From a virus, in the IMG/VR virus record IMGVR_UViG_3300040801_004562, positions 34,253-98,252 of that record: a stretch of 64,000 nucleotides of DNA; one strand, given 5' to 3'. Position numbers and translations under genes: made by a program. The notes beneath the pieces were generated by a model that saw only the letters and a program-made list of their open reading frames with translations, ran no database searches and was not told the origin of the DNA. Shown here one piece after another: positions 32,350 through 48,103 of the stretch; positions within the stretch are counted from its first letter, which is position 1, and the number at the start of each line of letters is the position of its first letter.

Positions 32350-32568
32350 ATGGCACTCGCGACTATAACTGGAGGTTGGTACTACAAGCTGGCTACTCCG
32401 TTGGTTTTGAACTGGCATCATGTCTTTAACGCCAACGTGGACAAGCTGTACCGGGATCATCTCAAGTTTGCAGAGCTTCGGAATGTAGATACCACCGGAC
32501 TACAAGACGGGGACGCCCTGGAGTGGGACACCACCACGTCCAAGTGGATTGTCCGGAGAACTTACTGA
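32350..32568 (+). CDS. small tail-fibre-associated protein
   Basis: ELRNVDTTGLQDGDALEWD...KW motif; SD GGAGG. Confidence 0.7.
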   Translation: MALATITGGWYYKLATPLVLNWHHVFNANVDKLYRDHLKFAELRNVDTTGLQDGDALEWDTTTSKWIVRRTY

Positions 32569-33401
32569 TGACGTATTACGCTACCCCTGCCACCGGACTT
32601 TACTTTTTGATCTTTGATGGCCTTTCGCCGACCAATTTTGCTGCAAATGTCGATGCAAACTGGCAGAAGCTCTATGACCGTTGGAATGTCCCGTACATGC
32701 CGGATTGGAAAGGCGATCCTGTCGATGACGGCAAGGTGATGGTATATGATCCGGCTTACCCTGGATTCGGTACGTGGATTCCAGCACCACCCGAAGATCT
32801 GTCGATATATGAATACAATGCTCTGAATCTTTCGGATCAAGGTAGCGCCAATTTCATAGAGTCAGTTGATGGGCTGACTTTCACGACGGTGGACGTCAAT
32901 GACTCTTGGAACGGCTGCAGGTGCAATTTTGGTGTTTCCTCCGGAAAGTGGTACTGGGAGATGAAAGTCGGCTCCTTGGACAACTACCTCGGGGTTGGGG
33001 TTTGTACGCCGACCGCAAGCCTGGAGAGTTATGTCGGAAACACTGCTGATGGGTGGATGTGGTCTGACAACTACGGCGCGACCAGGAACAATGGTACGAA
33101 CTATTGTACCGGCTGCAGCTGTGCGGCGAACGATATCATCATGTGCGCCTTGGATATGGATAATCGCAAGTTCTTTGTAGGGAAAAACGGCGTGTGGTGC
33201 GGGGCTGGAAATCCGGCGGCCGGGACCGGCTACTGTGGTCCGTTACTGCCAGAGGCAACGGAGATGTTTCCTGCAGTGATCTTGTACAATAACTATCCAC
33301 GTACCGGGACTTTGAACTTTGGGTATAGCGGGTTTACCTACAATGCGCCTGCCGGGTTTTATCAAATGAGGCGATTGAAGTTGACGACGACCACAGTGTA
33401 A
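32568..33401 (+). CDS. SPRY/ConA-like domain virion protein; ends KLTTTTV
   Basis: GKWYWEMKV...GVGVCT...DIIMCALDMDNRK...LNFG; TGATG coupling. Confidence 0.8.
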   Translation: MTYYATPATGLYFLIFDGLSPTNFAANVDANWQKLYDRWNVPYMPDWKGDPVDDGKVMVYDPAYPGFGTWIPAPPEDLSIYEYNALNLSDQGSANFIESVDGLTFTTVDVNDSWNGCRCNFGVSSGKWYWEMKVGSLDNYLGVGVCTPTASLESYVGNTADGWMWSDNYGATRNNGTNYCTGCSCAANDIIMCALDMDNRKFFVGKNGVWCGAGNPAAGTGYCGPLLPEATEMFPAVILYNNYPRTGTLNFGYSGFTYNAPAGFYQMRRLKLTTTTV

Positions 33402-33403
33402 TT

Positions 33404-33419
33404 TTGCAAACGTTTGCAA
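33404..33419. promoter_or_regulatory. 16-bp palindrome, copy 7
   Basis: Perfect; upstream of the GT4-like gene. Confidence 0.85.
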
Positions 33420-33459
33420 ATGCGGCTGTTCGACAGAACTGCATGCAAAAGGAGGATCG

Positions 33460-34728
33460 ATGAAAGAGAAGATTGCCATCCTGACCACCTTTCGGGAATT
33501 TATCCCCGGATACAGTTTAACAGGCATCGTCTGGGACCAGTATAAACTGCTGACTCGGCAGGGCCATCAGGTGGATATTTTCGTTGCGGAGGATTACCAC
33601 GGCAGGGGAACCCCTCCGGACTTCAAGGGCATCGAGGAGCAGATGCAGAGGAGGATCCCGAAAGCCAAACTGACCGATTACCAATCTCTGAAGCAGATGT
33701 CGACCGAGCACAGAGACGTTGCCACCAGAATGGAGGTCATGTGCCTGGAAGTCCTTTCCTCCTACCACGCGGTTTTTACCCATGATCTTATTTTTACCGG
33801 CTGGAACCTCCCGTACGGCCAGGGGATCAGGAAAGCCTCCCCCTCCATGCCGAACACGAAGTGGCTGCACTGGATTCACTCGATCCCGAGTGGTTTCAGA
33901 GACTTCTGGAATATGCGGGCTTTCGGACCAAGGCATCGATTGATCTACCCCAACCGTACAGACCTCCGGAGGGTGGCTGAGCAGTTCCGAACAGAGATTG
34001 AATCTTGCCGTGTTATTCCCCACCCAAAAGATCTCAGGAGCTGGTTCGAGTTTTCGGACCTGACGTGCTCATTTATTGACGACTTTCCGGGGATGATGGA
34101 GGCGGATATTATTCAGCTTTACCCCGCTTCATCCGATCGTTTGGAAGCGAAGGGAGTGCAGGACCTGATCCTTATTTTTGCCTGGATGAAAAAATGCGGC
34201 TTCAATGTATGTCTCACCATTGCAAACCAGCACGCAACAGATCGGGTTGCTGCGTCTTCTCCTGCAAAGATGCAGGCGATCGCAGGAAGGAATGGACTAT
34301 CAAGTTCCGAGGTGATATTTACGTCGAATTGGAGGGAGGGTGAGTTCAAATCCGGTCTGCCCAAGAGGACTATCCGTGAGCTTTTTCAGTGCTCCAATCT
34401 GTTCATATTCCCGACAAATCACGAGACATTTGGGTTGGTGTTGCCCGAGGCAGTTCTTGCTGGCGGGGTGCTCCCGGTGCTGAACAAATCCTTGGGAATG
34501 ATGGCGGAGGTTACCGGATTGAACGCTGATTATATCGACTTCGGCGCCTTCAATGCGGTCACGAATCGGGCGCCGCGCTTCCACGAAGGAGTTGCGCGGA
34601 GTGTTATTGGAAGACTGCAGAGAAATGAGGCTGTTATGACCAAAACCTATATTCGTCAACGGTACAACTGGGACAACCTGTACCGACGGTTTTATCAGCC
34701 GATCATTGCGGAGTCTGAAAACTGGTAG
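33460..34728 (+). CDS. glycosyltransferase, GT-B/GT4-like
   Basis: LFIFPTNHETFGLVLPEA (E-X7-E), GHQVDIF, KG motif. Confidence 0.88.
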   Translation: MKEKIAILTTFREFIPGYSLTGIVWDQYKLLTRQGHQVDIFVAEDYHGRGTPPDFKGIEEQMQRRIPKAKLTDYQSLKQMSTEHRDVATRMEVMCLEVLSSYHAVFTHDLIFTGWNLPYGQGIRKASPSMPNTKWLHWIHSIPSGFRDFWNMRAFGPRHRLIYPNRTDLRRVAEQFRTEIESCRVIPHPKDLRSWFEFSDLTCSFIDDFPGMMEADIIQLYPASSDRLEAKGVQDLILIFAWMKKCGFNVCLTIANQHATDRVAASSPAKMQAIAGRNGLSSSEVIFTSNWREGEFKSGLPKRTIRELFQCSNLFIFPTNHETFGLVLPEAVLAGGVLPVLNKSLGMMAEVTGLNADYIDFGAFNAVTNRAPRFHEGVARSVIGRLQRNEAVMTKTYIRQRYNWDNLYRRFYQPIIAESENW

Positions 34729-34749
34729 TTAAACTGGAGGGAACGAATT

Positions 34750-36693
34750 ATGGCCATTGGTGACGATTTCAGTGTGAACGCTGCCGGGGACATCCGCCAC
34801 GTTGCGAACACCAATACGTACACGGTGTTGGAGCTGCACCGCTGGTTGCAGGACTTGGCGGATGACGCAGAGGCGTCTGGTAACGACGTTATCGACATTT
34901 CCCGGTCCACCCCGTCTGAACGGTCGACAGACCAGATTATTCAGCTTCTTGGGTCGTACAATATCGACGACGATGCTGCTGAATATCTCTATGGTGGGTC
35001 GATCAAACAAGGATCAGGAGCTACCGAAGAGATTTACGCGGGGCTGAAGATCCTCGGTGCTGTGAACAATTCGAACACGCAGCTGATGGTGATCCAGAAC
35101 AACGATTATTATCAGTTCACGACGACTCCGACTGCCCCGTTCTGGGGGGATCAGTCGACAGGCGGGTTGAACGGTAACGCCCAGGAAGGTGTGCTCGCTC
35201 AATTCCTGGTGAAATGCCGGATCGCTGGTGTGGACATCGACAAGCGCCAGATTCGGGTGCAGGCCCGCGAATGGGGCGACACGTACGACTTCTTCAATGT
35301 GACCCTTGGAGAAGGTGAGTCGGTGGCGGCTATCGGTACCACAGCCGACGCTCAGAACGACACTGCCATCGGAACCGTCCAGGCGTGGGCCGGTGGGGAC
35401 ATCCCGACGAATACGGAAGGCTACCAGACCATTGATCTGAACAATGGCAACGGGGCCAAGCCGTATTACAGCAAGTGGACGTTCAATTCGAACACGGCCG
35501 GGTTGAAGGCGATCTGGGAGTACATCAAGGAGATCACCGGAAACAACAGCCCGGAAGCTGCAGCTCCCCACAGCATGAATGGTGAGCTTTTTCTCGGCAT
35601 CACGCACAGCTTTGGCTACGATGCGGGCGGGGCCTTTACCGAAGATGAGCTTGTCGTCTGGGGAACTGACGTCACTTACGACACGCTGGTTGGGGGCACC
35701 TTCACTGTTGGGAATCTGGTCCGGTTCTCCGGTGGGGCTGCGGGGCAGGTCGTTTACGACAACGGGACGACAAGCCTCAAGTTTATGACCGAGGACGTCG
35801 CCGACACGATCGCCAACGACGAGACGATTACCGAGTATGATCCTTCCACCGGGGCGGCAACTGGTGTCACTGCTGCTGTCAATGTCACGGTTGCCGGTGC
35901 GGATAAGGAAGGCGGCGTTGGAAGGGTGCTCGGGGCAACTGGGGCCGCGACCGGCTCGCTGTATATCCAACTGCTGAAGGGCAAGGCGCCTGTCGACAAC
36001 TTGCCGATTCGGGGCATGACTTCGGCCCAAACTGCCGACGTGGCTGGGTCGGTGTCGATCAAGACCGTGCCGAAGATCTTTCTGGGGTCGTATACCGGCT
36101 CCCTGATTGGTGCTTACGGCATCGGTGTGGATGCTGCTGATCTGTCAGCCTCTGATCGTCTCACCGCCTTGGATGGTACAGACCAGCAGCCCCCGAACAA
36201 TGTCACCTTCACCCTGTCCGGTCTGGTTGTTGGAGACCGGGTGCTTGTCGGGAAGAAGGCGGCGGGGAGCGACTTCGACTTTGCCGAGATGACGCTGGCT
36301 ACCTCCCTGACTGGTGCCGCAGTAACCTCGGTTGTGGTCAATGCCATCCCTGCTGATGCGCCGCAGATCGGCGTCCTGAGAATCACCCTGGATGACGGGC
36401 GAATTCGCCGGGTGCCTTATACGTCCCACAACGGATCGAACACCTTCACGATCGGATCGACCAGCTTTGTCGACCCGAATGACGCCACCAGCGGCAACGG
36501 CGTCATGTTGGCCTTCATCGACAAGGCGGCCGAGGATATCTCCGAAGCCTTCACCGTCGTCTACAATGCTCCGCGAACCCTGTGGGTCCGGGTTCGGGAT
36601 GGCGGGGCAAGCCCCATCAAAACGTACGAGTCCCAGGCGGCGCTCGGTTCCGGCGGTGGTGCTGCCACGGCCCTTCGAATCAGTGACGCATGA
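34750..36693 (+). CDS. large virion fibre/spike-associated protein
   Basis: Gly/Thr/Asp-rich beta protein in the tail module. Confidence 0.65.
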   Translation: MAIGDDFSVNAAGDIRHVANTNTYTVLELHRWLQDLADDAEASGNDVIDISRSTPSERSTDQIIQLLGSYNIDDDAAEYLYGGSIKQGSGATEEIYAGLKILGAVNNSNTQLMVIQNNDYYQFTTTPTAPFWGDQSTGGLNGNAQEGVLAQFLVKCRIAGVDIDKRQIRVQAREWGDTYDFFNVTLGEGESVAAIGTTADAQNDTAIGTVQAWAGGDIPTNTEGYQTIDLNNGNGAKPYYSKWTFNSNTAGLKAIWEYIKEITGNNSPEAAAPHSMNGELFLGITHSFGYDAGGAFTEDELVVWGTDVTYDTLVGGTFTVGNLVRFSGGAAGQVVYDNGTTSLKFMTEDVADTIANDETITEYDPSTGAATGVTAAVNVTVAGADKEGGVGRVLGATGAATGSLYIQLLKGKAPVDNLPIRGMTSAQTADVAGSVSIKTVPKIFLGSYTGSLIGAYGIGVDAADLSASDRLTALDGTDQQPPNNVTFTLSGLVVGDRVLVGKKAAGSDFDFAEMTLATSLTGAAVTSVVVNAIPADAPQIGVLRITLDDGRIRRVPYTSHNGSNTFTIGSTSFVDPNDATSGNGVMLAFIDKAAEDISEAFTVVYNAPRTLWVRVRDGGASPIKTYESQAALGSGGGAATALRISDA

Positions 36694-37166
36694 TGAAGAA
36701 CTGCGATCAATGCGCCCTGTGCTGCAAGCTGCTGGACGTCCCCGGACTTGCGGCCCCTGGCGCATGGTGTCCGCACTGCAAACCCGGAAAGGCCGGGGGC
36801 GGCTGTACGATTCACGCTGACCGCCCTCCGGTCTGTTCCGGTTTTGACTGTCTGTGGAGAACCTCCAGCGTTATGGATGAGCCGCTGCGGCCGGATCGCT
36901 GCGGGATCGTCTTTGAACTGTTCACGCCGGAGAAGTTTGTGGTCGCGATGGTGGATCAGCATAGACGGGATGCGTGGAAGTCCGGTAGGGCGGCACTGTT
37001 GATCCAGCAAATGTTGCGAGATGGCTTCTTTGTCTGGATCATGGTTGGAAAAGACAGAACCCTGTTGCTGCCCACCGGATGCACCGAACGGGAGGCACAT
37101 GCCCGTTCTGCCGAAGCCTATAAGCGAAAAGTAGGAGCTGGAAATGACAGCGCCCAGCTACACTGA
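36690..37166 (+). CDS. YkgJ-like CxxCxxCC cysteine-cluster protein
   Basis: CDQCALCC...CTIHADRPPVC..FDCLW. Confidence 0.8.
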   Translation: MMKNCDQCALCCKLLDVPGLAAPGAWCPHCKPGKAGGGCTIHADRPPVCSGFDCLWRTSSVMDEPLRPDRCGIVFELFTPEKFVVAMVDQHRRDAWKSGRAALLIQQMLRDGFFVWIMVGKDRTLLLPTGCTEREAHARSAEAYKRKVGAGNDSAQLH

Positions 37167-38982
37167 GGACCTGACCGATTTAGATCTGGCGGAAGCGACT
37201 ACCAACTGGGCAGAGTCGAGTGACGGCAGCTGGGATGACGGCGGCACCCCGACCTTGGATACGGACTATCCGTATTTGCAAGGAAATGGGGCCATTTCCC
37301 AGACGATGACCAAGACCACAATTTGCTCGCTGATGGCGAACTACGGGTCTGGGATCTCGCTGCCGACTGATGGGGCTTACTTTGTCTGGCAAAACTGGAT
37401 GTCGCCCACCGGCTTGAACACTTACGCCAGTGGCGGCATCCGCATTATGGTGGGAAGTGGGACCGGGGCGTTTAAGTGGTGGGCGGTTGGCGGGTCAGAT
37501 CGTGGCCGTAACCCGTATGGTGGTTGGCAGAATAACGTTGTGAATCCGACCATCTCAGCGGATGGGACGGTTGGAAGTCCTACATCTACAGAGCAGTATG
37601 TCGGCTCTGCCATGAATCCGCTTTCTGCCCCGAGTAAAGGTAACCCGCATCAGGTTGACGCTATTCGCTTTGGCAGAGGATCTTCGATCTTTGAGTATGG
37701 AGACGTGGCCAACGGCTACTGTACCTTTGCCGGTTTTGCGGCCCAGAATGACGCCGTTGCCAACCGGTGGGGCCTGATCCAGGCGGCCCAAGGTGGGTAT
37801 CTGTACAAGGGGAAGCTGACCCTTGGGACGACGAGTAATCCGTGCGATTTCAGGGACGCCAATGTCCTTGTCCTGATTGACGACACCCCGAAGGTTACGA
37901 CGAACTTCAATACGCTGGAGGTGAACAACGCTTCCAGCCGGATTGACTGGTCGAATGTTATTTTCAAGGCGCTCGGAACGCAGTCCCCCGGAAGGCTGGT
38001 GTGCAATGCCAATGCTGATCTGAATTGGGACGCATGCCAGTTCTTCAATATGGGGGCCTTTACGCTCGGAGGAAGCGGGAGTGAGCTGCTCAACTGTATT
38101 TGGAACGCCTGTGGCCTGATCACTGTTGCCGGTGGAAAGATCAACGGCAGCAAGATCATCACGCCGACTGTTGCAGCGGATGCTTCGGCGGTAGGCTGGG
38201 ATGTTGCCACAAACCCGGACGGCTACCTCGACGACCTGACCATTTCGCGTGGGGCCAATGCTCACCATGCCATTGGATTCGGCACCTCGTCCCCGTCGAG
38301 TATAACGATTCGCGGCCTGACTGCCACTGGCTTCAATGCGGCGAATGGGCAGAACGATTCGACGTTCTACATCGCCGATTCGAATACCGGAAACAGCTAC
38401 ACGATTTCATGTGTCGGCTGCTCCGGCAACATGACGTACAAAACCGCCGGGGCTTCGGTGACGATTGTCCAGGACCCGGTGACTGTCCGAGTGACTGTTA
38501 CCGACGTTCTCGGCAACACGATTGACGGCGCCCGCGTGCTGGTGAAGGCGTCCAATGCCACCGGCCCCTTTCCGTATCAGGAGTCGATAACGATCAGCAA
38601 CTCTGGAACGACTGCCACTGTGACCCACACCGGCCACGGGATGGCGACGAATGATCATGTTCTGATCGAAGGCGCCTCCTTGCTGGCGAATAATGGTGTC
38701 CACCAGATCACGAAGATAAGCGACAACAGCTATTCGTACACGATGTCGTCTTCGCCCGGAAGCAGCCCGACCGGGACGATAACGGCCACGTTTGTTGCCC
38801 TGTACGGCACCACTTCTGGCGGGGTGGTGTCTACGTCCAGGGTGTACAGCTCAGACCAACCGGTGACCGGCTGGGCGCGGAAAGCGTCCGGAACTCCCTA
38901 TTACAAGCCCGGCCCGATTGTTGGTCCGGTAGATTCGACTGACGGCCTGAACGCAACAGCCGTTATGATCGTGGACGAATAA
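37144..38982 (+). CDS. virion fibre/spike protein (beta-helix-like)
   Basis: Gly/Ser/Thr/Asn-rich; TATVTHTGHG motif. Confidence 0.65.
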   Translation: MTAPSYTEDLTDLDLAEATTNWAESSDGSWDDGGTPTLDTDYPYLQGNGAISQTMTKTTICSLMANYGSGISLPTDGAYFVWQNWMSPTGLNTYASGGIRIMVGSGTGAFKWWAVGGSDRGRNPYGGWQNNVVNPTISADGTVGSPTSTEQYVGSAMNPLSAPSKGNPHQVDAIRFGRGSSIFEYGDVANGYCTFAGFAAQNDAVANRWGLIQAAQGGYLYKGKLTLGTTSNPCDFRDANVLVLIDDTPKVTTNFNTLEVNNASSRIDWSNVIFKALGTQSPGRLVCNANADLNWDACQFFNMGAFTLGGSGSELLNCIWNACGLITVAGGKINGSKIITPTVAADASAVGWDVATNPDGYLDDLTISRGANAHHAIGFGTSSPSSITIRGLTATGFNAANGQNDSTFYIADSNTGNSYTISCVGCSGNMTYKTAGASVTIVQDPVTVRVTVTDVLGNTIDGARVLVKASNATGPFPYQESITISNSGTTATVTHTGHGMATNDHVLIEGASLLANNGVHQITKISDNSYSYTMSSSPGSSPTGTITATFVALYGTTSGGVVSTSRVYSSDQPVTGWARKASGTPYYKPGPIVGPVDSTDGLNATAVMIVDE

Positions 38983-39278
38983 TGAATGATAAACTGCTGA
39001 AAGAAGAACTGGAGAAGTGGAAGACGCTTTATACCGGGGCCGGAGTTGTAATCCGGTCCCTGGAAAGGCAGCTCGCTGATCTGTCGACGAAGCTGAGCGT
39101 TGCCGAATCCAACCTGAGCAATGCTCAGAATGCGGTTGCCATCAACAAGACGATCCTGCGACAGGTCACCGAAGAGCACAACCGCAAGGAGAAGGACCTG
39201 ATCGAATTTATGAACCGTCTCAAGGCAAAACTGAGGGAGATGGGATACGATGGCAGTTTCGATCGACTGGGGCAGTAG
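38982..39278 (+). CDS. coiled-coil protein
   Basis: Heptad pattern; TAATG coupling. Confidence 0.7.
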   Translation: MNDKLLKEELEKWKTLYTGAGVVIRSLERQLADLSTKLSVAESNLSNAQNAVAINKTILRQVTEEHNRKEKDLIEFMNRLKAKLREMGYDGSFDRLGQ

Positions 39279-40608
39279 GGTCATCTTTGTTCCGAAGGCT
39301 GACCTGACCCTGATCCAAGCCACCCCGACAGAGATCCGAGAGATGAATCTCGACTGGTTCCGTTTTCAGCTGAAGGGGCTGGAAGACGATCCGGAAGGGA
39401 TGCCCTTTCCCGATACCCACCGGCACAATACAGAGGCCACCGTTGCCGGTCTGACCCTTGCCCGAGTTATCGAGATCATCAACGATTACACGGTGACCTT
39501 TGAAGACGGTCAGTATGCTGTGAACCTCGTTGGGGCGAACAGCAACGTCGGTGATGTGGTCAACGTGAATCAGGTCTCGGTCCGGTCGTTCAACTCCGCA
39601 GGACTGATCTCCAACCCGGCCATCGAGTACGCCTCCTACAACGGCGGGGTGACGGTGGACAAGAACTCGGCGTACTCCGGAACGCTTTACCCGGTCGGGA
39701 CTCCACGACAGCCGGTGAACAACCTTGCCGACGCTTTGCTGATCGCCCAGTATCGGGGTTTCACGACGTTCTATATCATCGGCGACATGGTGATCGACAG
39801 TGCCGGAAATTATGGCGGCTTCATTTTCGTTGGGGAGTCGGAGTCGAAATCGATGCTTGAAATTGATTCTGACGCCTCCGTTTCGGAGTGTGAGTTTTAT
39901 GATGCCCACATAGAGGGCATTCTGGACGGCAACGCGAAACTGAAGAACTGTATCATTGAAGACCTGCAGTACATCTACGGAATGGTGGAGCAATGTTTGC
40001 TACAGGCAGGAACCATCGTGCTCGGCGGGTCCAACGTGGCCCATTTCATAGACTGCTGGAGCGGGTCAGCGGACAAAAATGTCATCCCCTACATCGATAT
40101 GGGAGGGGCTGGGCAAGATCTGATTTTGCGAAACTACAACGGGGCAATCGGCATCAAAAACCTGACCGGGGCCACCAACAAGGTGAGCATAGACCTGAAC
40201 TCGGGGGTGGTGGTTCTGGACCCAACGGTGACGGCGGGAGAGGTGGTGGTCAGGGGAGTGGGAACAGTGGTGAATAATTCCGTTGGCGCCACGGTCGACA
40301 CCCACGACCTGATCAACCCGTCTGTAATCACCACGAAGGTGTGGGATGAGCCGACCGCCGACCGGCAGACGCCAGGAACGATCGGAGGCGACTATTTCCA
40401 GATGCTGCAGGCCATGCCCAGGATGCTCGGGCTTGTCCAGGAGAATTACAAGCTCGACCAGACAGTCTATGATGCAAACGGCAACTTGACCAGCGGCAGG
40501 ATCCAGATCTTTACCGACGCCACGATGACCACGGTGATGGCGTCTTACCAGATAACTGCTGTATTTACGGCTGGGCGCCTAACCAGCTATCAGGTGGTGA
40601 AACAGTAG
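39250..40608 (+). CDS. virion spike-like protein
   Basis: GTPRQPVNNLADAL motif and beta-helix-like repeats. Confidence 0.65.
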   Translation: MAVSIDWGSRVIFVPKADLTLIQATPTEIREMNLDWFRFQLKGLEDDPEGMPFPDTHRHNTEATVAGLTLARVIEIINDYTVTFEDGQYAVNLVGANSNVGDVVNVNQVSVRSFNSAGLISNPAIEYASYNGGVTVDKNSAYSGTLYPVGTPRQPVNNLADALLIAQYRGFTTFYIIGDMVIDSAGNYGGFIFVGESESKSMLEIDSDASVSECEFYDAHIEGILDGNAKLKNCIIEDLQYIYGMVEQCLLQAGTIVLGGSNVAHFIDCWSGSADKNVIPYIDMGGAGQDLILRNYNGAIGIKNLTGATNKVSIDLNSGVVVLDPTVTAGEVVVRGVGTVVNNSVGATVDTHDLINPSVITTKVWDEPTADRQTPGTIGGDYFQMLQAMPRMLGLVQENYKLDQTVYDANGNLTSGRIQIFTDATMTTVMASYQITAVFTAGRLTSYQVVKQ

Positions 40609-40618
40609 AGGAGGCGGG

Positions 40619-41047
40619 ATGGCAAGGATAGTGTTGGTGTTGATGGTCACGACGTCGTTGGCAATGGCTGCCCTGGCGGCGGCCGAAGAGATTCACTATG
40701 CGAACAGAACCACGCTGCAATGGAAAATGACCTGGGCGGAAGGACAGACTCCTGCCCCGGAATCGGAGATGGCATACAAGGTTTACCGGACACTGGCAAC
40801 GGCTCCGGACAAGGAGAACCCGGAGTTCCTGGCCGAGATTCGCGGAAAGGACACCTTCCCTGTTGCGTTCGCGAAAGAGGGCAAGTATATCCTTGGGGTC
40901 CGGGCTGTCCGGTACAAACCAGGGAAAGAGGAGCCAATCGAATCCCCCATTGGGTGGTCTGACGTTCCCGAGAACACGTACGACAAGCCGTTTTCTGTTC
41001 AATTTGACCTCCCCCCTGAAGCACCGACCGAAGTAAAAGCTGAATGA
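40619..41047 (+). CDS. secreted FN3/Ig-like protein
   Basis: Signal peptide; LQW...YKVYR...YILGVRAV...ES. Confidence 0.7.
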   Translation: MARIVLVLMVTTSLAMAALAAAEEIHYANRTTLQWKMTWAEGQTPAPESEMAYKVYRTLATAPDKENPEFLAEIRGKDTFPVAFAKEGKYILGVRAVRYKPGKEEPIESPIGWSDVPENTYDKPFSVQFDLPPEAPTEVKAE

Positions 41048-41050
41048 TTG

Positions 41051-41182
41051 AAGTCTCCCGAGCCGAGACCGTTTGGACTGAACGGCAAGTAGGCGAATTC
41101 GTGGTAACTGACTTCTGACAGGTAAATTCGCAAGATCCTGCTCGGATCGAAGGAAAGTCAGATCTGCACGATAGGGAGACTT
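41051..41182 (+). ncRNA. candidate structured RNA (multi-stem with possible pseudoknot)
   Basis: AAGTCTCCC/GGGAGACTT closing stem; internal CCGTT/AACGG, GCGAATT/AATTCGC, GATCC/GGATC; loop CTGACTT complementary to AAGTCAG. Confidence 0.5.
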
Positions 41183-41199
41183 GCATGCAAGGAGGCTGA

Positions 41200-41445
41200 A
41201 TGTCCATATCACTTGCCACGAAGGGGGTCATCAGTTACGGGTCGAGTCCTGGGGATGTCATTTACGTGGACCGGTGGCACATCGAAACCCCGGTTGACGT
41301 TGATCTTGAAGAAATAGCTGTGTCTGTGGAAAGTGAGGAATTGCAAACGTTTGCAAATCTGACCGACCCGGAGGTGGTTATCGAGAGCACCGCAGATGAA
41401 GTCGCAATCGGGCCTTTAGAAGATTCCGTTACAGTGGAGGTATGA
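41200..41445 (+). CDS. small acidic protein (contains palindrome copy 8 at 41341-41356)
   Basis: SD AAGGAGG; MSISLATKGVI start. Confidence 0.65.
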   Translation: MSISLATKGVISYGSSPGDVIYVDRWHIETPVDVDLEEIAVSVESEELQTFANLTDPEVVIESTADEVAIGPLEDSVTVEV

Positions 41446-41446
41446 G

Positions 41447-41791
41447 ATGGCTGACACCATTATTGAATTGAAGAAGGGCGAGGGGAAGTGGATAAAATTC
41501 ACCGTAGTCCGGGGCGGGGCGGCTGTTGACCTCACCTCTGCCACCCTTGCCTTTGGGGTGAAAAAGAAGATCTCCGATGCCGCATACATCCACTACGTCA
41601 GCGATCTGGACTTCGATAAAGCCTCCGCTGCAGCTGGGATTGTCCGAGCGAACATCCCGTCCACCTTGACCGCCTCCTTGCCGGTTGGGGATTACGACGG
41701 AGAGCTGAAGATCATCCTGACAGCGGATACCGATGTGGACAAGAGCCACCGGGTGGTTTTGAAAATCCGCCCTGCCATCATCCACGACTGA
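41447..41791 (+). CDS. BppU N-terminal-like baseplate/fibre adaptor
   Basis: GAAVDLTSATL...GIVRANI...LPVGDYDGELKI. Confidence 0.7.
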   Translation: MADTIIELKKGEGKWIKFTVVRGGAAVDLTSATLAFGVKKKISDAAYIHYVSDLDFDKASAAAGIVRANIPSTLTASLPVGDYDGELKIILTADTDVDKSHRVVLKIRPAIIHD

Positions 41792-41798
41792 GGAAGCC

Positions 41799-42332
41799 AT
41801 GGATGCAACGCAATTCGATCTTTTGATTCAGGTTATCTCCCAGGCGACCTCGGTGCTTGGATGGGTGGTCGGCACTTTTTTGGCAGTTCTGATTACAGTG
41901 GTTGGCGGCTCTCTGGGGCTTGTCTCCAGAATGTGGGGGCAGAGACTTGATGCGATTAACGCCATTGCGGAGAGGGCTGTGACAGTAGCGGAGACGGCAA
42001 CGATGCAGTCGACGAGACTTTCAGAAGCTGCTCAGCAAGGGCTGCACCAAGCCGGTGTCCATTGCTCTGAACTCCGGTCCGCCTGTAGAGAACAAATCCT
42101 TGAGAAATACGTGGACAGAAAGGAAATAAAAGAGATGGAGCATGAGTTCAAGGGACTGGTCCAGTCTGTTTTATCCCGGCTTGAGGGAGGGGTCAGGGAG
42201 AACCGGGACCTGATCCTGAAAAAACTCGACGACTTCACCAAGAGGCAGGATTCCCGGCTGGGAGAGTTTCTCGAAACGGTCCACAAACACGAGCACACGG
42301 AGGACGGGAAGAGTGTGGTGGTCAAGAGATGA
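41799..42332 (+). CDS. membrane-anchored coiled-coil protein (holin/antiholin-like)
   Basis: One N-terminal TM helix followed by coiled coil. Confidence 0.55.
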   Translation: MDATQFDLLIQVISQATSVLGWVVGTFLAVLITVVGGSLGLVSRMWGQRLDAINAIAERAVTVAETATMQSTRLSEAAQQGLHQAGVHCSELRSACREQILEKYVDRKEIKEMEHEFKGLVQSVLSRLEGGVRENRDLILKKLDDFTKRQDSRLGEFLETVHKHEHTEDGKSVVVKR

Positions 42333-43255
42333 GGGTTTTGCTTCTCGGGACAAACCAGGAGAGCCGGTACAATTCCGGGCATCAACTTTTCAAGAACGAG
42401 GTTGCCAGGCAGACGAATGCCCGATTTTACGGTCCGGGGCATAAGTTCTGGGATCCGAGCAGGGCTCACATCAACCAAATCCTGCGGGTGTTGGAGTTTC
42501 AGCCGGATGTCGTCCTGACGTACATGGGGAAATACTGCAAGTGGGTCGTGGGGCTGGATGAGATCAAACTCCCCAAGGCCCATATCGTTGTTGATTATTT
42601 CCCGTGGAACTTCAAAGATGAGGACAGCTTTATCACCGCGTCCAAGCCTGATGTCGTTTTCCCGGTTGTCCTGCATGAATTGAGGGAGCTGGAGCGACGG
42701 CACCCAGACCTGAGAGTGAAGCACCTCCCATTTTCTGTTGATGCAAACTTCTTCCGCTGCACCGGAAGGGAGAGGAAATATGATCTGATGGCTGTGATGA
42801 GCGCTATAAGCTGGTGTTACCCGACCAGAGGGAGCATCATCACGGAGGCCAAGAGCCTGAACCTCCCAGGAATATATCGGGCGAGCTGGCCAGCGAACAG
42901 ACTCATGCCTGATGATTACGTCAAAAGTCTCTGCAACTCAAAGATAGTCCTGAACGGAGTGGACAGTTACCGCTCCCTCAACTGGAAGTTTATGGAAGCC
43001 CCTGCCTGCGGCGCCCTCCTGATGACGGAAGCCGCTGAGGACATGAAGGCTCTGCGTTTTGTCGATGGGGAGAACTGCGTGGTTTTCAAGGGAATCCCGG
43101 ACATGGTAGAGAAAATCCGTTTCTACCTGAAAGATGCAGAAAGTCGATGCCGAATAGCCGCTGCCGGAATGGATCTGATCAACAGATTTCACACTACCGA
43201 GATACGTGTCCGCGAGATGCTCGCGAGATTCACGACGATCTTTGGGGTCGTGTGA
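42329..43255 (+). CDS. glycosyltransferase, CgeB-like GT-B
   Basis: HLPFSVD...SKIVLN...KFMEAPACGALLMT...HTTEIR. Confidence 0.85.
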   Translation: MRVLLLGTNQESRYNSGHQLFKNEVARQTNARFYGPGHKFWDPSRAHINQILRVLEFQPDVVLTYMGKYCKWVVGLDEIKLPKAHIVVDYFPWNFKDEDSFITASKPDVVFPVVLHELRELERRHPDLRVKHLPFSVDANFFRCTGRERKYDLMAVMSAISWCYPTRGSIITEAKSLNLPGIYRASWPANRLMPDDYVKSLCNSKIVLNGVDSYRSLNWKFMEAPACGALLMTEAAEDMKALRFVDGENCVVFKGIPDMVEKIRFYLKDAESRCRIAAAGMDLINRFHTTEIRVREMLARFTTIFGVV

Positions 43256-44185
43256 ATGATTGATGTCCTGTTTGTCGCTATCGACGACTGGGCGAATGTC
43301 GGGGCTCTGTGCGCCAAGGCTTGCCGTTCTGTTGGACTGAAGTCCAAGGCGGTGGCCCGGCGAATACACGAGTTTCATTACCCGACAAAGCCTGAGCTGT
43401 GGAGGTCGGTCGAGGACCTGCAGGCCCTGTGCGATCAGTCCAGAGCGATCGTGTTCATGCACTCCACCTTTATATCCGCCGTGAGGCTGAACCGGGAAAC
43501 GCAGAGGGTTGCTGTTTTCCACGGGGGGAGCGCATACCGGAGACGGCCCTGGAAAATTGCCCAGGCCCTGTTTGATAAGGTTGATCTGTCCTTTGTCCAG
43601 GACGGGACGCTTTTTGGGTTCGGCGGAAAGAATGAAACCCTGCTAATCCCCCCGGTTGACGATGAGTATTTCGTCCCGAGATACAGCCCTTTGCACACAC
43701 TTGCAAATCGGATCGTTGTTGGGAACTACCCCAGAGCCACCGGACACGGTTATGTAATGAAGGGCGCGAGGGTGGTGGTGAACGCTGTTCGGCCTCATGT
43801 TCTCAACGGATCTTGTATTTTTAAGCAGTCGACGACCGTCGTTCCTTGGATCCAGCAGCTCAGTAGGGTAAATGAGGTGGACGTTTACGTTGAAAAGATG
43901 GGACTTGAGGTCCGGGAGTGGGGGCTGGCAGCGCTGGAGGCCGCAGCTCTCGGGAAGGTGGTGGTGACGAACTGCGAACATCCGGAAGAATATGAGAAGG
44001 TTTATGGCAAGACCCCCTTCATAATTGCCAATTCACCAGATGAGCTGAGGGAGCGCGTTGGGGAGATTGTGGCCTTGCCTCCTGCTAAGATTCGAAAACT
44101 TCAAGAGGAGACCAGAACTTGGGTGATCAGGAATCACGGGATGGAGGCGACCGGGTACTATTTGGAGCAGGCCCTCCGCCATTAG
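43256..44185 (+). CDS. glycosyltransferase, GT-B
   Basis: MKG...WGLAALEAAALGKVVVT. Confidence 0.8.
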   Translation: MIDVLFVAIDDWANVGALCAKACRSVGLKSKAVARRIHEFHYPTKPELWRSVEDLQALCDQSRAIVFMHSTFISAVRLNRETQRVAVFHGGSAYRRRPWKIAQALFDKVDLSFVQDGTLFGFGGKNETLLIPPVDDEYFVPRYSPLHTLANRIVVGNYPRATGHGYVMKGARVVVNAVRPHVLNGSCIFKQSTTVVPWIQQLSRVNEVDVYVEKMGLEVREWGLAALEAAALGKVVVTNCEHPEEYEKVYGKTPFIIANSPDELRERVGEIVALPPAKIRKLQEETRTWVIRNHGMEATGYYLEQALRH

Positions 44186-44889
44186 GGCAGTTTACCTACA
44201 TCGAGTATCAAAGGATGCTGTTCGAGCTGGCCAAAGCCGGGTACAAAATGATCGGCTACCACGAGAATGCCGATCCCCCGTATGCGATGATTCGCCATGA
44301 TATAGATTTATCCCCGCCCCTGGCGCTGCCCCTTGCCGTTGTGGAAAACGCGCTTTCAATCAAAACCACCTACTGCTTTATGGTCCGGTCGAGCGCCTAC
44401 AACCTATTTTCGAAGGGGAGCGCGGCTGTCGTTCAGAAGCTCTTGGACCTCGGACATTTGGTCGGTCTTCATTTTGACTGTGACTCCTACCCCTCCGTAA
44501 GAACCCCAGCCGAGATAGCCGCTGCAGTCCGGGTGGAGGTTGGGATGCTGGAGAAGTGGTTTGGGCTTGACGTATCAATGGTCAGCTTCCACAAACCGAA
44601 TCAGTTGATTCTGGGCGGATCTCAGGAGCTGACTGATCCCCTGCCTCACGCTTACATGGGGAAGTTTCTTCGCGGTTCGGCGTACTTTTCTGATTCCTAC
44701 GGATTTTGGCGCTTCGGTCACCCGTTACGGTCGAACGCCTTTAAAGATCGAAAGCCGCTGTCTTTATGTTGCCATCCTGTCTGGTGGGGTCCTGAGCCGA
44801 CGTCTCCCTTGCTCGCAATGAGAGAGGTGGCCCTCCAGAAGAAGGAAGATATCCGTCAATACATGTTGACCAATATAGTGGGGGTGTGA
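44119..44889 (+). CDS. polysaccharide deacetylase-like (WbmS-like); start uncertain
   Basis: RHDID, GHLVGLHFD, SFHKP, HPVWW motifs. Confidence 0.75.
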   Translation: MGDQESRDGGDRVLFGAGPPPLGQFTYIEYQRMLFELAKAGYKMIGYHENADPPYAMIRHDIDLSPPLALPLAVVENALSIKTTYCFMVRSSAYNLFSKGSAAVVQKLLDLGHLVGLHFDCDSYPSVRTPAEIAAAVRVEVGMLEKWFGLDVSMVSFHKPNQLILGGSQELTDPLPHAYMGKFLRGSAYFSDSYGFWRFGHPLRSNAFKDRKPLSLCCHPVWWGPEPTSPLLAMREVALQKKEDIRQYMLTNIVGV

Positions 44890-45626
44890 TGAGAGAAGAA
44901 GTGGATCTTGTCCTGGCGGTCACTGAAGACGCCAAGCCGACCAGTGCGATTGATTGCCCAAAACCAGGGACCGTGACTTTTTGGCGCGGGAAGCTACCAT
45001 GCCCACGGCTCGGGTCAATGCGCTTGTGGGTTCTCACCTCATGCAAACAGTGTGAGGTAGCGTGGCCTGACCGAGTTCGCGCCATTTTTACCGAAACTCC
45101 GGAGTGGACGTTCTGGTGTTACCATAATTGGTACTGGGCGGGGAGATCGTTGCCAACGAGATCGGAGTGTGGGCTTGCCTGCAATATCCACCAATCTGCG
45201 GTTATCGGGGCCTCGGGGCTCAAGATTGTCAGGGGGCCGGAGAACCAGTTGCTGAAGGCGTTCCACTCAGGTCAGGTTGTGATCGGGGATCGAGTTGAAA
45301 TTGGGCCGAACAGCGTTGTTCACCGTGCGGTCCTGTCCGCCACGATTATTGGAAATGACGTGACTATCGGCTCCCTCTGCAATATCGGACACAACGTTCA
45401 GATCGGGGAGCGCTCGATCCTGACGGTTGGGGTATCCCTGAGTGGGTCGTCCAGCATCGGTGCTGACTGTTTTATCGGATCCGGTGTCACCGTTCTTGAG
45501 GGGGTCAGAGTTTGCGGAAAGGTTAAGATCGGGGCCGGGTCCGTTGTAACTCGGGACATTACCCATCCGGGGATCTACTTCGGGTCCCCTGCAAAATTCA
45601 AAGGAGACTGGGACGGGAGGTGGTGA
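44886..45626 (+). CDS. hexapeptide-repeat acyltransferase (LpxD-like C-terminus)
   Basis: GQVVIGDRVEIG...IGHNVQIG...GSPAK. Confidence 0.8.
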   Translation: MMREEVDLVLAVTEDAKPTSAIDCPKPGTVTFWRGKLPCPRLGSMRLWVLTSCKQCEVAWPDRVRAIFTETPEWTFWCYHNWYWAGRSLPTRSECGLACNIHQSAVIGASGLKIVRGPENQLLKAFHSGQVVIGDRVEIGPNSVVHRAVLSATIIGNDVTIGSLCNIGHNVQIGERSILTVGVSLSGSSSIGADCFIGSGVTVLEGVRVCGKVKIGAGSVVTRDITHPGIYFGSPAKFKGDWDGRW

Positions 45627-46081
45627 TGGCAAACACGCGGCAGAACCTGAAAATCGGATCGTGGGCGGTCATCGAACAGGGCTGCGAGATAGGCGATAAT
45701 GTCACGATTGGAAATTACGCCTACATCAAAAAAGGGACCCGAATTGGGGATAACACCGTGATCGGAAGTTATGTTCGCACCGGGGCGGACTGTTCGATCG
45801 GGAAGAATTGCGTGATCAAATGCAGGGCCACAATATCACCGGACTGCGTGATTGGAGATGGCGCTTTTCTCGGACCGCATGCCATGATGCTGCATCAATA
45901 CCCGAATGGGGAGCATAGGCCGTCCAGCATTGAAAAAAACGCGTGGATAGGGGCCTGTGCGCTGATCGGTCCAGGGGTGATCATTGGGGAGGGCGTGACG
46001 TTGGGAGCAATGTCGTATGCCCATACCTGCTGCATGGAGCCGGGGCTTTACATCGGGACCCCAGCCAGGAAGGTGAGGTAG
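45626..46081 (+). CDS. hexapeptide-repeat acetyltransferase
   Basis: Left-handed beta-helix repeats; GTPAR. Confidence 0.8.
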   Translation: MANTRQNLKIGSWAVIEQGCEIGDNVTIGNYAYIKKGTRIGDNTVIGSYVRTGADCSIGKNCVIKCRATISPDCVIGDGAFLGPHAMMLHQYPNGEHRPSSIEKNAWIGACALIGPGVIIGEGVTLGAMSYAHTCCMEPGLYIGTPARKVR

Positions 46082-46083
46082 CC

Positions 46084-46509
46084 ATGCCGGTCAACGCCGA
46101 GGTTGGGGAGGGGACGAAGATCTGGCACCCGGAGCTGGTCAATATTTACGGCTGCCTGATCGGGCGCGATTGCAATATTGGGTGCTTTGTAGAAATCGGT
46201 CCAGAAGTCGTGGTCGGGAACCGATGTAAAATACAGACGAAGGCGTACCTGCCGAAGGGGATACGTTTGGAGGATGACGTCTTTATCGGACCGGGGGTGA
46301 CGTTCCTGAATGATAAGCATCCCCCCTCCAATGGAGAGTGGGGGGAATGCACGACCATCGTCAAAGAGGGTGCTTCCATTGGGGGTGGGGCCTTGATCCT
46401 GCCCGGTGTCACCATCGGGCGCAGAGCCGTGATCGGGGCTGGTGCCGTGGTGACGAAAAATGTTGGGGATGGGGAAACAGTAGTCGGTGTCCCTGCCCGC
46501 TGCCTGTGA
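46084..46509 (+). CDS. sugar N-acetyltransferase (WbpD/WxcM-like)
   Basis: IWH..NIYGC.IG.DCNIG.FVEI...FLNDKHP...GVPAR. Confidence 0.82.
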   Translation: MPVNAEVGEGTKIWHPELVNIYGCLIGRDCNIGCFVEIGPEVVVGNRCKIQTKAYLPKGIRLEDDVFIGPGVTFLNDKHPPSNGEWGECTTIVKEGASIGGGALILPGVTIGRRAVIGAGAVVTKNVGDGETVVGVPARCL

Positions 46510-46524
46510 TCTTTCGGAGATAAG

Positions 46525-47244
46525 ATGAGCCTGAACTTTGGATTGATCGGAGACGGCAGGATTGCCACCCGGCACCGTAAAGCGATCGACGCCATCGGCT
46601 GCAAGCTGAAGAGGGTTTACGACCCCGGAAAAGACAGTTCCTGCAGAATTCTTGACCACGAGTTTTTCGACGGCCTCGACTGGGTTGCGATTGCTTCCCC
46701 CACCAACTGCCATTATGGCCACATCAAAGCGGCGCTGCAGTACGGGATGAAGGTTATCTGTGAGAAGCCTTATGTCCTGCCGTGGGAGCCTGTGATTGAT
46801 TCGGATGCCGTCTTCGTTGTGATGCAACTCCGTTGGCTTGACGGCCTCCCGGAGACCGCCAAACGGATCCGGATCATCGCTTCCCGAAATGAGGCGTATT
46901 TCAAGTCCTGGAAGGGAGACCCGCTGCTGACCGGGGGACTATTCTTTGACGTCTTCATTCATTACGTCGACTTGGCAAGGCGGTATGGCTGCGAGCTTGA
47001 GGCCCACGTCCAGTCTGAGGGAGAGCAGGGTCGGTGGATTGATGAATACAACCTCCTGAATGTCGATATGGATCAAGCCTATCGCTCAATGTACGAGGAT
47101 ATCGTTTACCGTGGGGTTGGAGTCCGGCCCCAGGATGTGGCCCGGCTGCATTGGATGCTGGGGAGGTACACGGAGCGGTTTGGCTTTGGGCGCGAAATAA
47201 TCGGGAAACAGATACTGGTGAGGCCAAATGGAGTGGTTCGCTGA
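46525..47244 (+). CDS. Gfo/Idh/MocA oxidoreductase (WbpB-like nucleotide-sugar 3-dehydrogenase)
   Basis: LIGDGRIA.RH, IASP..H, ICEKP, SWKGD...GG...HYVD. Confidence 0.8.
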   Translation: MSLNFGLIGDGRIATRHRKAIDAIGCKLKRVYDPGKDSSCRILDHEFFDGLDWVAIASPTNCHYGHIKAALQYGMKVICEKPYVLPWEPVIDSDAVFVVMQLRWLDGLPETAKRIRIIASRNEAYFKSWKGDPLLTGGLFFDVFIHYVDLARRYGCELEAHVQSEGEQGRWIDEYNLLNVDMDQAYRSMYEDIVYRGVGVRPQDVARLHWMLGRYTERFGFGREIIGKQILVRPNGVVR

Positions 47245-47632
47245 TTATTTGAAGAGGTTCGAGGCAGCCATTGCCGAGGGCGTGCGAAATGGGAGTTTCG
47301 GCTCATTCAAAATGGTCCCCGTCCTTCCGGGAAAATTGAGCACCCGTCGGATCGGGAAGACGCTCGGGCTGGTGATCGATACAGACGATCTCCTTGTGAT
47401 CGACTTTTACGGGTATCTCAAGAAGAGCCGTGGTTTCGCCGATCTCGCCAAGGAAGTTGCCTTCTCAATGTCCGGGAAGCAGGTGAAAATGGTGGAGGCC
47501 CCTGTCGTCCATTTTAACAGTGTTCGGCTTGAGGTAATTGCCAGAATAGACGGAGACCTCGTTCCAGACTTCGGGAGGTTCAAGAAGGCTGTGCTGGACG
47601 CCAGGGAATTTCAGCACAATTACAGCGCATAG
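47228..47632 (+). CDS. hypothetical protein
   Basis: ORF packing. Confidence 0.6.
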   Translation: MEWFADYLKRFEAAIAEGVRNGSFGSFKMVPVLPGKLSTRRIGKTLGLVIDTDDLLVIDFYGYLKKSRGFADLAKEVAFSMSGKQVKMVEAPVVHFNSVRLEVIARIDGDLVPDFGRFKKAVLDAREFQHNYSA

Positions 47633-47636
47633 GTGG

Positions 47637-47909
47637 GTGATGAAAAACGGAATTCGTACTACAGAATTTTGGTTGGTTGCCGGGGTGATGCTTTTCGCCC
47701 TGCTGGTTGCTTTCGGCGGGCTGACCCCGGAGAAGGTTCAGATCACGACGGTGAAGCTCCGGGAGACCACCGCCGCCCTGCCTGAACTGATCAATGCACT
47801 GCAGACGCTCGCAGAAAATCTGGGCCCCCTCCTGATCGCTGCCGGGTCGGTGTGGGCGTATCTCAAGAGGAGAACTGAACTGAAACAAGAGAAGGAGGTG
47901 ATCAAATGA
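47637..47909 (+). CDS. holin-like two-TM protein
   Basis: GIRTTEFW followed by a TM helix; second TM; basic C-terminus. Confidence 0.6.
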   Translation: MMKNGIRTTEFWLVAGVMLFALLVAFGGLTPEKVQITTVKLRETTAALPELINALQTLAENLGPLLIAAGSVWAYLKRRTELKQEKEVIK

Positions 47910-48103
47910 ACGAGCCTGAATTTCCGATTCCTGGGCCGATTCCACCGCCGTACATACCGCCGTATGTACCGCCAACGGATTCGAGGGTGAAGATTGCCCT
48001 CATGCTGTTGAAAACTGCAGTGGAGCTGTTGGATGATGCCGCCAACCAGCCTGTACCGTACTATACGACAGATAACGCGGCGCAAGAGCGAAAGGACGAA
48101 TGA
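47906..48103 (+). CDS. small Pro-rich hypothetical protein
   Basis: SD AAGGAGGT; ATGA overlap. Confidence 0.6.
   Translation: MNEPEFPIPGPIPPPYIPPYVPPTDSRVKIALMLLKTAVELLDDAANQPVPYYTTDNAAQERKDE

Follow-up and report, generated by a model that had tools for sequence, protein, structure and literature searches.

Which product does a bacteriophage make with its own genes for a rare amino sugar, and to what does it attach this product? The question is raised by seven plus-strand genes at 42329-47244 of a 64,000-nucleotide stretch of viral DNA (the window). The window is the right-hand 64 kb (bases 34253-98252) of the IMG/VR record IMGVR_UViG_3300040801_004562, a 98,252-bp linear virus genome of a siphovirus-like phage; coordinates are in window numbering unless marked "genome", which refers to the whole 98-kb record. 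We propose, as an answer that we rate a little better than even, that a sugar-tailoring island which varies between phages is represented here by the cluster. Its genes would specify a route, confined to the cytoplasm, to an N-acylated UDP-2,3-diamino-2,3-dideoxyhexose that is added to O-glycans on poly-threonine tags. The initial annotation of the window had likewise assigned the cluster to a glycan of the virion, and this idea gained indirect support from poly-threonine C-termini that co-occur in related phages with two glycosyltransferases (GTs) flanking the cluster.

Threonine tags on virion proteins

The 270 plus-strand open reading frames (ORFs) of at least 50 amino acids in the phage were scanned for runs of four or more threonines (T≥4). 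Nine runs were found in seven ORFs, all nine within 15 residues of the C-terminus. The tagged ORFs carried runs of four to five threonines; six of the seven belong to the virion module (Table 1), and the remaining one, of 74 aa, lies in the part of the record before the window. The threonine codons differed within the runs, an indication that selection acts on the protein. In a control set of 1,662 ORFs from 25 unrelated viral loci, no T≥4 run was present. The tagged 180-aa protein is probably the tail tube, an assignment based on its size and the position of its gene before the tape measure gene.

Relatives were sampled as the best 80 of 155 viral loci related by the major capsid protein (MCP). 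C-terminal T≥4 tags were present in 30 of these 80 loci (L029-L047, L053, L061-L065, L068, L069, L072, L078, L087), with runs of up to 17 threonines, and were located on homologous capsid, connector-region and tube proteins. MCPs with at least three threonines in the last 12 residues occurred in 32 of the 80 relatives. Threonine runs end the capsid, the putative tube and other virion proteins, and their co-occurrence with glycosyltransferases suggests a role as acceptor sites. In L037 and L066 (capsid 74 % identical), a short C-terminal extension of the capsid protein was kept and contained no threonine run.

Glycosyltransferases accompanying the tags

Two glycosyltransferase genes, here called the core GTs, track the tags: a GT-B enzyme encoded directly after the tagged tail genes and a GT2 (GT-A) enzyme downstream of the cluster. 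Their distribution was surveyed in 27 larger related records, which were searched whole. The core GT-B was detected at 44-64 % identity in eight records, all of them tagged, hence in 8 of 10 tagged versus 0 of 17 untagged records (Fisher p 2e-5). Eight of the 17 untagged records without this gene were rated at least 90 % complete. The two tagged records lacking it (37 % and 50 % complete) stop before the position expected from near-identical sisters, so that all tagged records reaching this position (8/8) have the gene. The core GT2 was present in seven of the 27 records, all tagged, and also in L005, a syntenic close relative of the cluster. Both core GTs were absent from G008, a close untagged relative with an MCP 74 % identical. 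For an independent-contrast test, a capsid tree was built without the last 20 residues; on this tree tags and GT-B each change four times, always together.

By sequence, the core GT-B gave weak GT1 matches; its alignment (A2) contained 87 invariant columns, and its profile retrieved from the solved structures marginal GT4 matches at 0.003, besides chance matches. The core GT2 had no match among the solved structures. The record of L037 lacked both core GTs, which may represent a joint loss. In one tagged relative the GT2 homologue (G001:C1:40172-41104, minus strand) is broken by one in-frame TAA.

The island between the core glycosyltransferases

Eight relatives shared one gene order: tagged tail genes, GT-B, a variable island, a gene like that at 47228, and GT2. 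The content of the island changed from phage to phage. It comprised hexapeptide transferases and a GT of the 42329 type in L109; a radical SAM enzyme, three methyltransferases, a hexapeptide transferase, a GT2 and a GT1 in L110; a single methyltransferase in L111; a GT1, a B12-radical SAM enzyme and methyltransferases in L113; a UDP-sugar dehydrogenase, a GT17, methyltransferases and a GT1 in L114; and two 42329-type GTs, a sulfotransferase, a GSCFA protein, three hexapeptide transferases and LpxC in L115. In the phage studied here the core GTs are 14.7 kb apart. The part of the island at 34750-41791 probably consists of tail-fibre genes, judged by size, position and partial homologues, and the amino-sugar cluster follows. 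The 42329-type GT, the LpxD-like protein and the hexapeptide transferases of this cluster recur in the islands of the tagged relatives L109 and L115. The WbpB-like dehydrogenase gene is missing from all 27 related records, which marks the cluster as an accessory cassette rather than a conserved core.

The LpxC of L115 is a true one (5.5e-63) and is encoded at L115:9567-10391 (minus strand), beside the three hexapeptide transferases and between both core GTs. The radical SAM genes were located at L113:6281-7561 (plus strand, with a B12-binding domain) and L110:4780-5661 (minus strand), with several methyltransferases alongside, which suggests C- or O-methylated glycans in these phages.

The seven-gene cluster

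The seven ORFs fill 42329-47244, abutting or overlapping one another. Hidden Markov model (HMM) and structure matches largely bore out the composition given in the initial annotation, i.e., two GT-B enzymes, a deacetylase-like protein, three acyltransferases and a WbpB-like dehydrogenase, and the WbpB-like gene was indeed adjacent to a WbpD-like one (46081-46509 followed by 46525-47244).

The first gene product matched PF13524 at 9.2e-21, with 74.7 bits against a cut-off of 25. Besides the islands of the tagged relatives L109 and L115, homologues of this GT were found in two unrelated sugar clusters, L004 and L013. The second GT had by sequence only a sub-threshold match to Pfam Glycos_transf_1 (0.0085). 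Its AlphaFold2 model, built with seven homologues, had a predicted local distance difference test score (pLDDT) of 86.4 and matched GT-B/GT4 enzymes in Foldseek, with 8xsg on top (E 4.7e-10); PimB', BshA and MshA came next, and PglA had a lower rank.

The LpxD-like protein (44886-45626) matched TIGR01853 (LpxD) at 9.5e-39, but with 133.2 bits against a curated cut-off of 242.5. The match spanned the helix only, profile positions 157-308 of 325, and residues 1-85 form an own, cysteine-containing N-terminus without LpxD counterpart; the protein is therefore not a full-length LpxD with the N-terminal uridine-binding domain. Compared with E. coli LpxD (3eh0, 4.2e-27), the motif IGHNV aligned to IAHNV, whose histidine we take to be the catalytic residue of the E. 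coli enzyme. The 45620-46081 product gave generic matches of the QdtC/AntD/LpxA-like kind: Hexapep at 4.1e-40, NeuD/PglB/VioB at 2.3e-22, QdtC 3fs8 at 1e-13 and the 3vbn group at 7.6e-11. The third transferase (46081-46509) corresponds to the left-handed beta-helix 3-N-acetyltransferase (WbpD/WlbB) of the Wbp/Wlb pathway, with matches to WxcM-like 4mzu (4e-32), 7s43 (1.9e-30) and WlbB 3mqg (7.1e-26). The QdtC/FdtD-type proteins 4mzu and 7s43 were closer than WlbB, hence the sugar specificity of the enzyme is not fixed by these matches.

The protein encoded at 44119-44889 had no match in Pfam, including PF01522, PHROGs, NCBIfam or the PDB sequences. Its gene probably starts at TTG 44119 within the preceding gene, as indicated by conserved N-terminal columns upstream of ATG 44215. 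The AlphaFold2 model (pLDDT 96.3) retrieved CE4 deacetylases as top matches, led by 2vyo (E 2.3e-6, TM 0.51), and also ArnD; leads in a protein atlas were "polysaccharide deacetylase" and WbmS-like look-alikes. With the CE4 match coming from the model and no curated family matching by sequence, the term deacetylase-like applies to the predicted fold. The family is large, with 2,844 relatives at E≤0.001 in a HMMER search of 1.84 billion representatives, and has no Pfam or NCBIfam model. Arg, His, Asp and Glu columns were invariant across 51 aligned members; as alignment columns, H28, D29, D31, H86, H126 and H187 are among the invariant positions. Among ten longer, fused relatives that were scanned, seven carried a UDP-GlcNAc 2-epimerase, one a DegT protein, one a formyltransferase and one nothing recognisable.

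The last gene of the cluster codes for a candidate GFO/IDH/MocA 3-dehydrogenase of the WbpB/WlbA type (PF01408 at 2.3e-10), with WbpB structures as best PDB matches (3oa2 at 4.2e-14, 3o9z at 1e-11). With 239 aa it lacks about 75 residues relative to WbpB (312-318 aa). The protein collection contained 62 relatives of this short form, mostly of 235-246 aa, and E80-K81-P82 and H146 were invariant in 19 aligned members; judged by their sequences, the short dehydrogenases are a family of their own. One member (P0218, 518 aa) has the short WbpB-like domain behind an N-terminal part of about 270 aa. Scanning viral contigs with the single protein sequence yielded no relative, while an alignment-based profile retrieved 25 viral loci, including very large viral records of 268 kb and 179 kb (L010, L013). 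Within 10 kb of the WbpB-like gene of these 25 loci, homologues of the WlbB-class transferase and of the second hexapeptide transferase were each encoded in 15, of DegT in 11, of a short-chain dehydrogenase/reductase (SDR) in 8, of the LpxD-like protein in 7, of the 43256-type GT in 6, of the CE4-fold protein in 4, and of PIG-L and the 42329-type GT in 3 each. In L005 the order is 43256-type GT, CE4-fold protein, LpxD-like protein, hexapeptide transferase, an added FkbM methyltransferase, WlbB-class transferase, WbpB-like gene, 47228-like gene, GT2, polymerase and portal.

Two associations of the dehydrogenase were rejected. Its absence from the 27 related records rules it out as part of a conserved tag system, and the 25 loci without any T≥4 run rule out a WbpB-like module that accompanies threonine tags elsewhere.

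Sugar genes outside the window and the proposed pathway

Among the window ORFs scanned, neither an aminotransferase nor a WbpA-like dehydrogenase was found, in agreement with the initial annotation, which had expected the missing steps from the host or from genes outside the window. A whole-record search located two of these steps in the same phage. A DegT aminotransferase, the sole DegT match in the record, ends 822 bases before the window (genome 32267-33430). It matched Pfam at 1.3e-82, PDB 4qgr at 3.8e-68 and WbpE 3nyu at 3.9e-62 and corresponds to the PLP-dependent 3-aminotransferase (WbpE) of the Wbp pathway. A 2-epimerase is encoded further upstream; its wecB model match cannot tell WecB from WbpI specificity. 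WbpA was not located: PF03721 (UDPG_MGDP_dh_N) had no match at E≤1 in the 98-kb record, with a control that matched 14 of 14 genomes. The pathway would thus depend on UDP-GlcNAcA from the host or else use UDP-GlcNAc as its substrate. Candidates for four of the five Wbp/Wlb enzyme types, all but WbpA, are recognisable in the phage by homology. Five GT genes are present in the record (window 33460, 42329, 43256 and 49465; genome 17080), thus phage-encoded glycosyltransferases, as in virion O-glycosylation of the mycobacteriophage type, are at hand.

In the proposed pathway, the 46525 product would oxidise UDP-GlcNAc, or UDP-GlcNAcA of the host, at C3, the DegT protein would aminate C3 after the oxidation, and the 46081 product would acetylate the amino group to yield a UDP-2,3-diamino-2,3-dideoxyhexose derivative. 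A 2-epimerisation of the diamino sugar may follow. The CE4-fold and PIG-L proteins would remove an N-acetyl group, and the LpxD-like and second hexapeptide transferases would attach another acyl group. The presence of two deacetylase-like enzymes together with two further acyltransferases suggests such a swap of N-acetyl for another acyl, and LpxC beside LpxD-like genes in a relative points to the same exchange. The core GT-B and GT2 may start the glycan on the threonine tags, and both GT-B enzymes of the cluster may add the diamino sugar to the glycan begun by the core GTs. The presumed acceptors are the C-terminal threonine runs of capsid, connector-region, tail-tube and tail-tip proteins. 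All steps would take place in the cytoplasm, before assembly.

Table 1 Features of the phage genome discussed in the text (window numbering unless marked "genome")
Feature	Position	Strand	Match, C-terminus or remark
Methyltransferase	genome 13049-13750		upstream of window
wecB-equivalog 2-epimerase	genome 13752-14843		261.9 bits, cut-off 210.15
GalE-like SDR	genome 14840-15790		upstream of window
PIG-L deacetylase	genome 16444-17070		upstream of window
Further GT	genome 17080-18591		upstream of window
Major capsid protein (MCP)	15337-16278	+	phrog_1623 at 8.6e-105; C-terminus ...VSTTT
Head-tail region protein, 195 aa	16604-17191	+	C-terminus TTTT...TTTTTI; homologues tagged 19/42
54-aa protein	17207-17371	+	C-terminus TTTTTAG; homologues tagged 7/9
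180-aa protein, putative tail tube	18641-19183	+	C-terminus TTTTTV; homologues tagged 23/30
Tape measure protein	19818-23531		run of tail proteins to 33401 downstream
Structural protein	24515-25612	+	phrog_687; C-terminus TLTTTTV
Tail protein, 878 aa	29704-32340	+	phrog_1101 at 7.5e-84; C-terminus TTTTEPPPTTTTTV
SPRY-domain virion protein	32523-33401	+	C-terminus KLTTTTV
Core GT-B glycosyltransferase	33460-34728	+	directly after tagged tail genes; weak GT1 matches
Glycosyltransferase, Glyco_trans_1_2 type, 308 aa	42329-43255	+	Pfam PF13524
GT-B fold (GT4-like) glycosyltransferase, 309 aa	43256-44185	+	AlphaFold2 model and Foldseek
CE4-fold, deacetylase-like enzyme	44119-44889	+	AlphaFold2 model; outside every curated family
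LpxD-like left-handed beta-helix acyltransferase, 246 aa	44886-45626	+	TIGR01853, 3eh0
Hexapeptide sugar N-acyltransferase, 153 aa	45620-46081	+	Hexapep
WlbB/WbpD/QdtC-class 3-amino-sugar N-acetyltransferase, 142 aa	46081-46509	+	PDB matches
WbpB-like NAD-dependent sugar 3-dehydrogenase, 239 aa	46525-47244	+	PF01408, WbpB PDB matches
Conserved protein, 134 aa	47228-47632	+	directly downstream of cluster; no family match (Pfam, NCBIfam)
Core GT2 (GT-A) glycosyltransferase	49465-50472	+	PF00535 at 3.9e-10
DNA polymerase	51158-53797		downstream of cluster
Portal	53809-55530		downstream of cluster

Comparison with known systems

The enzymes resemble those of the Wbp/Wlb pathway to UDP-2,3-diacetamido-2,3-dideoxy-D-mannuronic acid (Pseudomonas aeruginosa Wbp; Bordetella Wlb), with the same four homologues, i.e., 3-dehydrogenase, 3-aminotransferase, 3-N-acetyltransferase and 2-epimerase. 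Excerpts of PMC10622841 name WbpA, B, E, D and I as requirements of the Wbp pathway. In contrast, no WbpA was found in the phage, the short dehydrogenase belongs to its own family and the genes are scattered. The phage also has two extra acyltransferases and two deacetylase-like enzymes, and no undecaprenyl phosphate (Und-P) machinery was found. The deacetylate-then-re-acylate logic and the LpxD-like beta-helix are shared with the Raetz pathway (LpxA/LpxC/LpxD), but this phage has no LpxC, and an unrelated segment stands in place of the uridine-binding N-domain. GnnA and GnnB provide the route to UDP-GlcNAc3N.

In mycobacteriophages, glycans are located at the C-termini of capsid and tail-tube subunits (passages of PMC12619734 citing Freeman et al. 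2023), and virion O-glycosylation of these phages is also cited in passages of PMC13313380 (Freeman et al. 2023). Going by these passages, the likeness lies in phage GTs and in C-terminal sites on capsid and tail-tube proteins, which here are putative. Unlike the mycobacteriophages, the present phage is of another lineage, probably with a Gram-negative host; as far as the passages go, it further differs by homopolymeric threonine runs on many virion proteins, an own nucleotide-sugar pathway and an island that varies between phages. Titles and abstracts, subscription papers not being covered, contained no case of phage virion glycosylation beyond actinobacteriophages, nor a report of a phage-encoded Wbp-type pathway or of threonine-tagged phage capsids.

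Giant viruses of the Mimivirus type synthesize rare amino sugars for the glycosylation of their fibrils. Rare N-acylated amino sugars that decorate the particle and are made by viral genes independently of the host would be common to both, whereas the present virus infects bacteria, has other enzymes and presents encoded threonine tags as presumed acceptors.

A wider picture is more doubtful, and we put it forward tentatively. A siphovirus lineage with genomes of about 95-100 kb, probably infecting Desulfobacterota, might coat its particles with mucin-like O-glycans on encoded C-terminal poly-threonine tags, and the coat might be diversified by a hypervariable "glycan serotype island" framed by two conserved GTs, a phage equivalent of O-antigen loci. 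In the phage studied here, island and scattered genes together would perform a Raetz-like deacetylate/re-acylate scheme on a 2,3-diamino sugar, giving a glycan with non-acetyl, possibly hydroxyacyl or fatty N-acyl groups. If true, this would be a second, unrelated phage lineage with encoded threonine tags as glycan acceptors, and a phage that makes its own rare diamino sugar, with a glycan coat varying from phage to phage much as bacterial O-antigens do. Effects of phage surface glycans on adsorption, stability and the recognition by hosts or predator defence would become testable. The compact enzymes would be of use for glyco-engineering: a 239-aa WbpB-like dehydrogenase, a CE4-fold family without curated model, and tag-specific GTs.

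Weighing of the evidence and alternative explanations

Several points weigh against a tailoring pathway for threonine-linked virion glycans. Acceptor, product and glycan are putative, and the evidence for them is indirect. The WbpB-like gene was found in none of the 27 related records, tagged ones included, and five other whole phage records with a WbpB-like module contained no run of five threonine codons, a search that as positive control retrieved four such runs in the phage's own genome. The module thus occurs independently of the tags, and its product could be meant for a different acceptor. The MCPs of L054-L060 end with TGTTTY, and the two records of this group that were searched were both without GT-B. 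The capsid tree gave four concordant pairs, only two of them on well-supported branches, too few for the sign test to reach significance. The other sugar genes of the phage are scattered over more than 60 kb and do not form one operon. The record has a CheckV completeness of about 80 %, so absences of genes are not firm; with no WbpA found in it, the uronic-acid form of the sugar is unsupported.

Of the alternatives, the one that survives best, still an unlikely one, is an auxiliary cassette that remodels the host envelope (lipopolysaccharide, capsule or S-layer glycan), e.g., against superinfection, with the virion not being the target. Enzymes of the Wbp/Wlb type normally serve O-antigen synthesis (excerpts of PMC10622841), many unrelated viral contigs have the WbpB-like module but no threonine tags, and two neighbouring gene products (40619-41047 and 48100-48846) have a signal-peptide-like N-terminal segment; yet the record encodes no initiating phosphoglycosyl transferase, as both Bac_transf and Glycos_transf_4 were without match, no flippase- or polymerase-like membrane protein, with no ORF having more than two hydrophobic segments in a hydropathy scan, and no integrase. 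Lack of membrane machinery and integrase fits a cytoplasmic process of the lytic cycle; it is harder to reconcile with Und-P-linked envelope synthesis or with serotype conversion. The latter, which the initial annotation had named as an observation that would speak against a virion glycan, found no support here; neither a temperate lifestyle nor the membrane-embedded transferases of serotype-converting prophages (Gtr/Oac) were apparent in the record. The location of the cluster inside an island flanked by two tag-tracking GTs likewise disfavours the envelope as target.

Slightly less probable again is that tags and cluster are unrelated, the tags being flexible spacers or phosphorylation sites, and the cluster serving to decorate a small molecule or a different protein of phage or host. 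The small number of independent co-changes of tags and GTs and the WbpB-like gene not being shared by tagged relatives would agree with this, but not the GT-B in every tagged record that reaches the expected position, the lack of both GTs in the untagged close relative G008, or the cluster-type genes recurring in the islands of L109 and L115. A glycosylation of phage DNA bases as hypermodification against restriction, also considered as a counter-case in the initial annotation, is very improbable: phage GTs are known to hypermodify DNA (passages of PMC12619734 citing Pyle et al. 2024) and a ParB_N-domain protein is encoded beside the upstream GT, but it is protein tags that the core GTs follow, no DNA-modification family turned up when 87 ORFs of the record were scanned with Pfam, and the explanation is weakened by the lack of a thymidylate-synthase-like hydroxymethylase (PF00303, no match at E≤1 in the record, about 80 % complete).

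Neighbouring genes and genome setting

The 47228-47632 product, which adjoins the cluster, has homologues of 36-57 % identity in seven syntenic loci (L109-L112, L114, L115 and L005). The gene is next to GT2 in L109, L111 and L115; two further loci have it at the end of the island that faces GT-B. Weak leads to bPH/GRAM-like proteins came from a protein atlas whose model was poor (pLDDT 0.39), and no hydrophobic segment was detected in the hydropathy scan. The protein could be a specificity or adaptor subunit.

The cluster had been described as lying between two holin-like genes. Hydrophobic segments were present in both flanks: the 177-aa product of 41799-42332 (plus strand) has one N-terminal segment followed by a long polar tail, and the 90-aa product of 47637-47909 (plus strand) has one segment over threshold. 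Neither had a family match over threshold in Pfam or PHROG, so the term holin-like reflects these segments alone. The assigned late-region setting is fair, with tail genes upstream and DNA polymerase and portal downstream. A scan of 33000-51500 for promoters and terminators detected fewer candidate sites of both kinds than in shuffled sequence, thus operon boundaries could not be placed. The two genes with signal-peptide-like N-terminal segments had no family match; a 26 %-identical homologue of 48100-48846 adjoins GT-B in L115.

The phage is distant from known relatives: its MCP was less than 60 % identical to each of 227 matching records in the phage collection, and the cluster had no blastn match among 50,697 phage records. 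In the search for a host, a single-sequence scan of genome contigs gave no match. The profile scan with the core GT-B retrieved seven phage-like contigs in assemblies of metagenome-assembled genomes, with tail genes, threonine tags and GT2, of which four were titled Deltaproteobacteria, Thermodesulfobacteriota or Desulfobacteraceae. These labels are no more than a hint at a host among the Desulfobacterota; the host is probably Gram-negative.

An HNH endonuclease gene (HNH_3, 1.7e-5) at 48912-49472 is located directly upstream of the core GT2 gene and overlaps it. Further downstream, 56376-60629 codes for a protein of 1,417 aa; part of it is Mu F-like, and its C-terminal domain is DUF3626 (2.5e-13).

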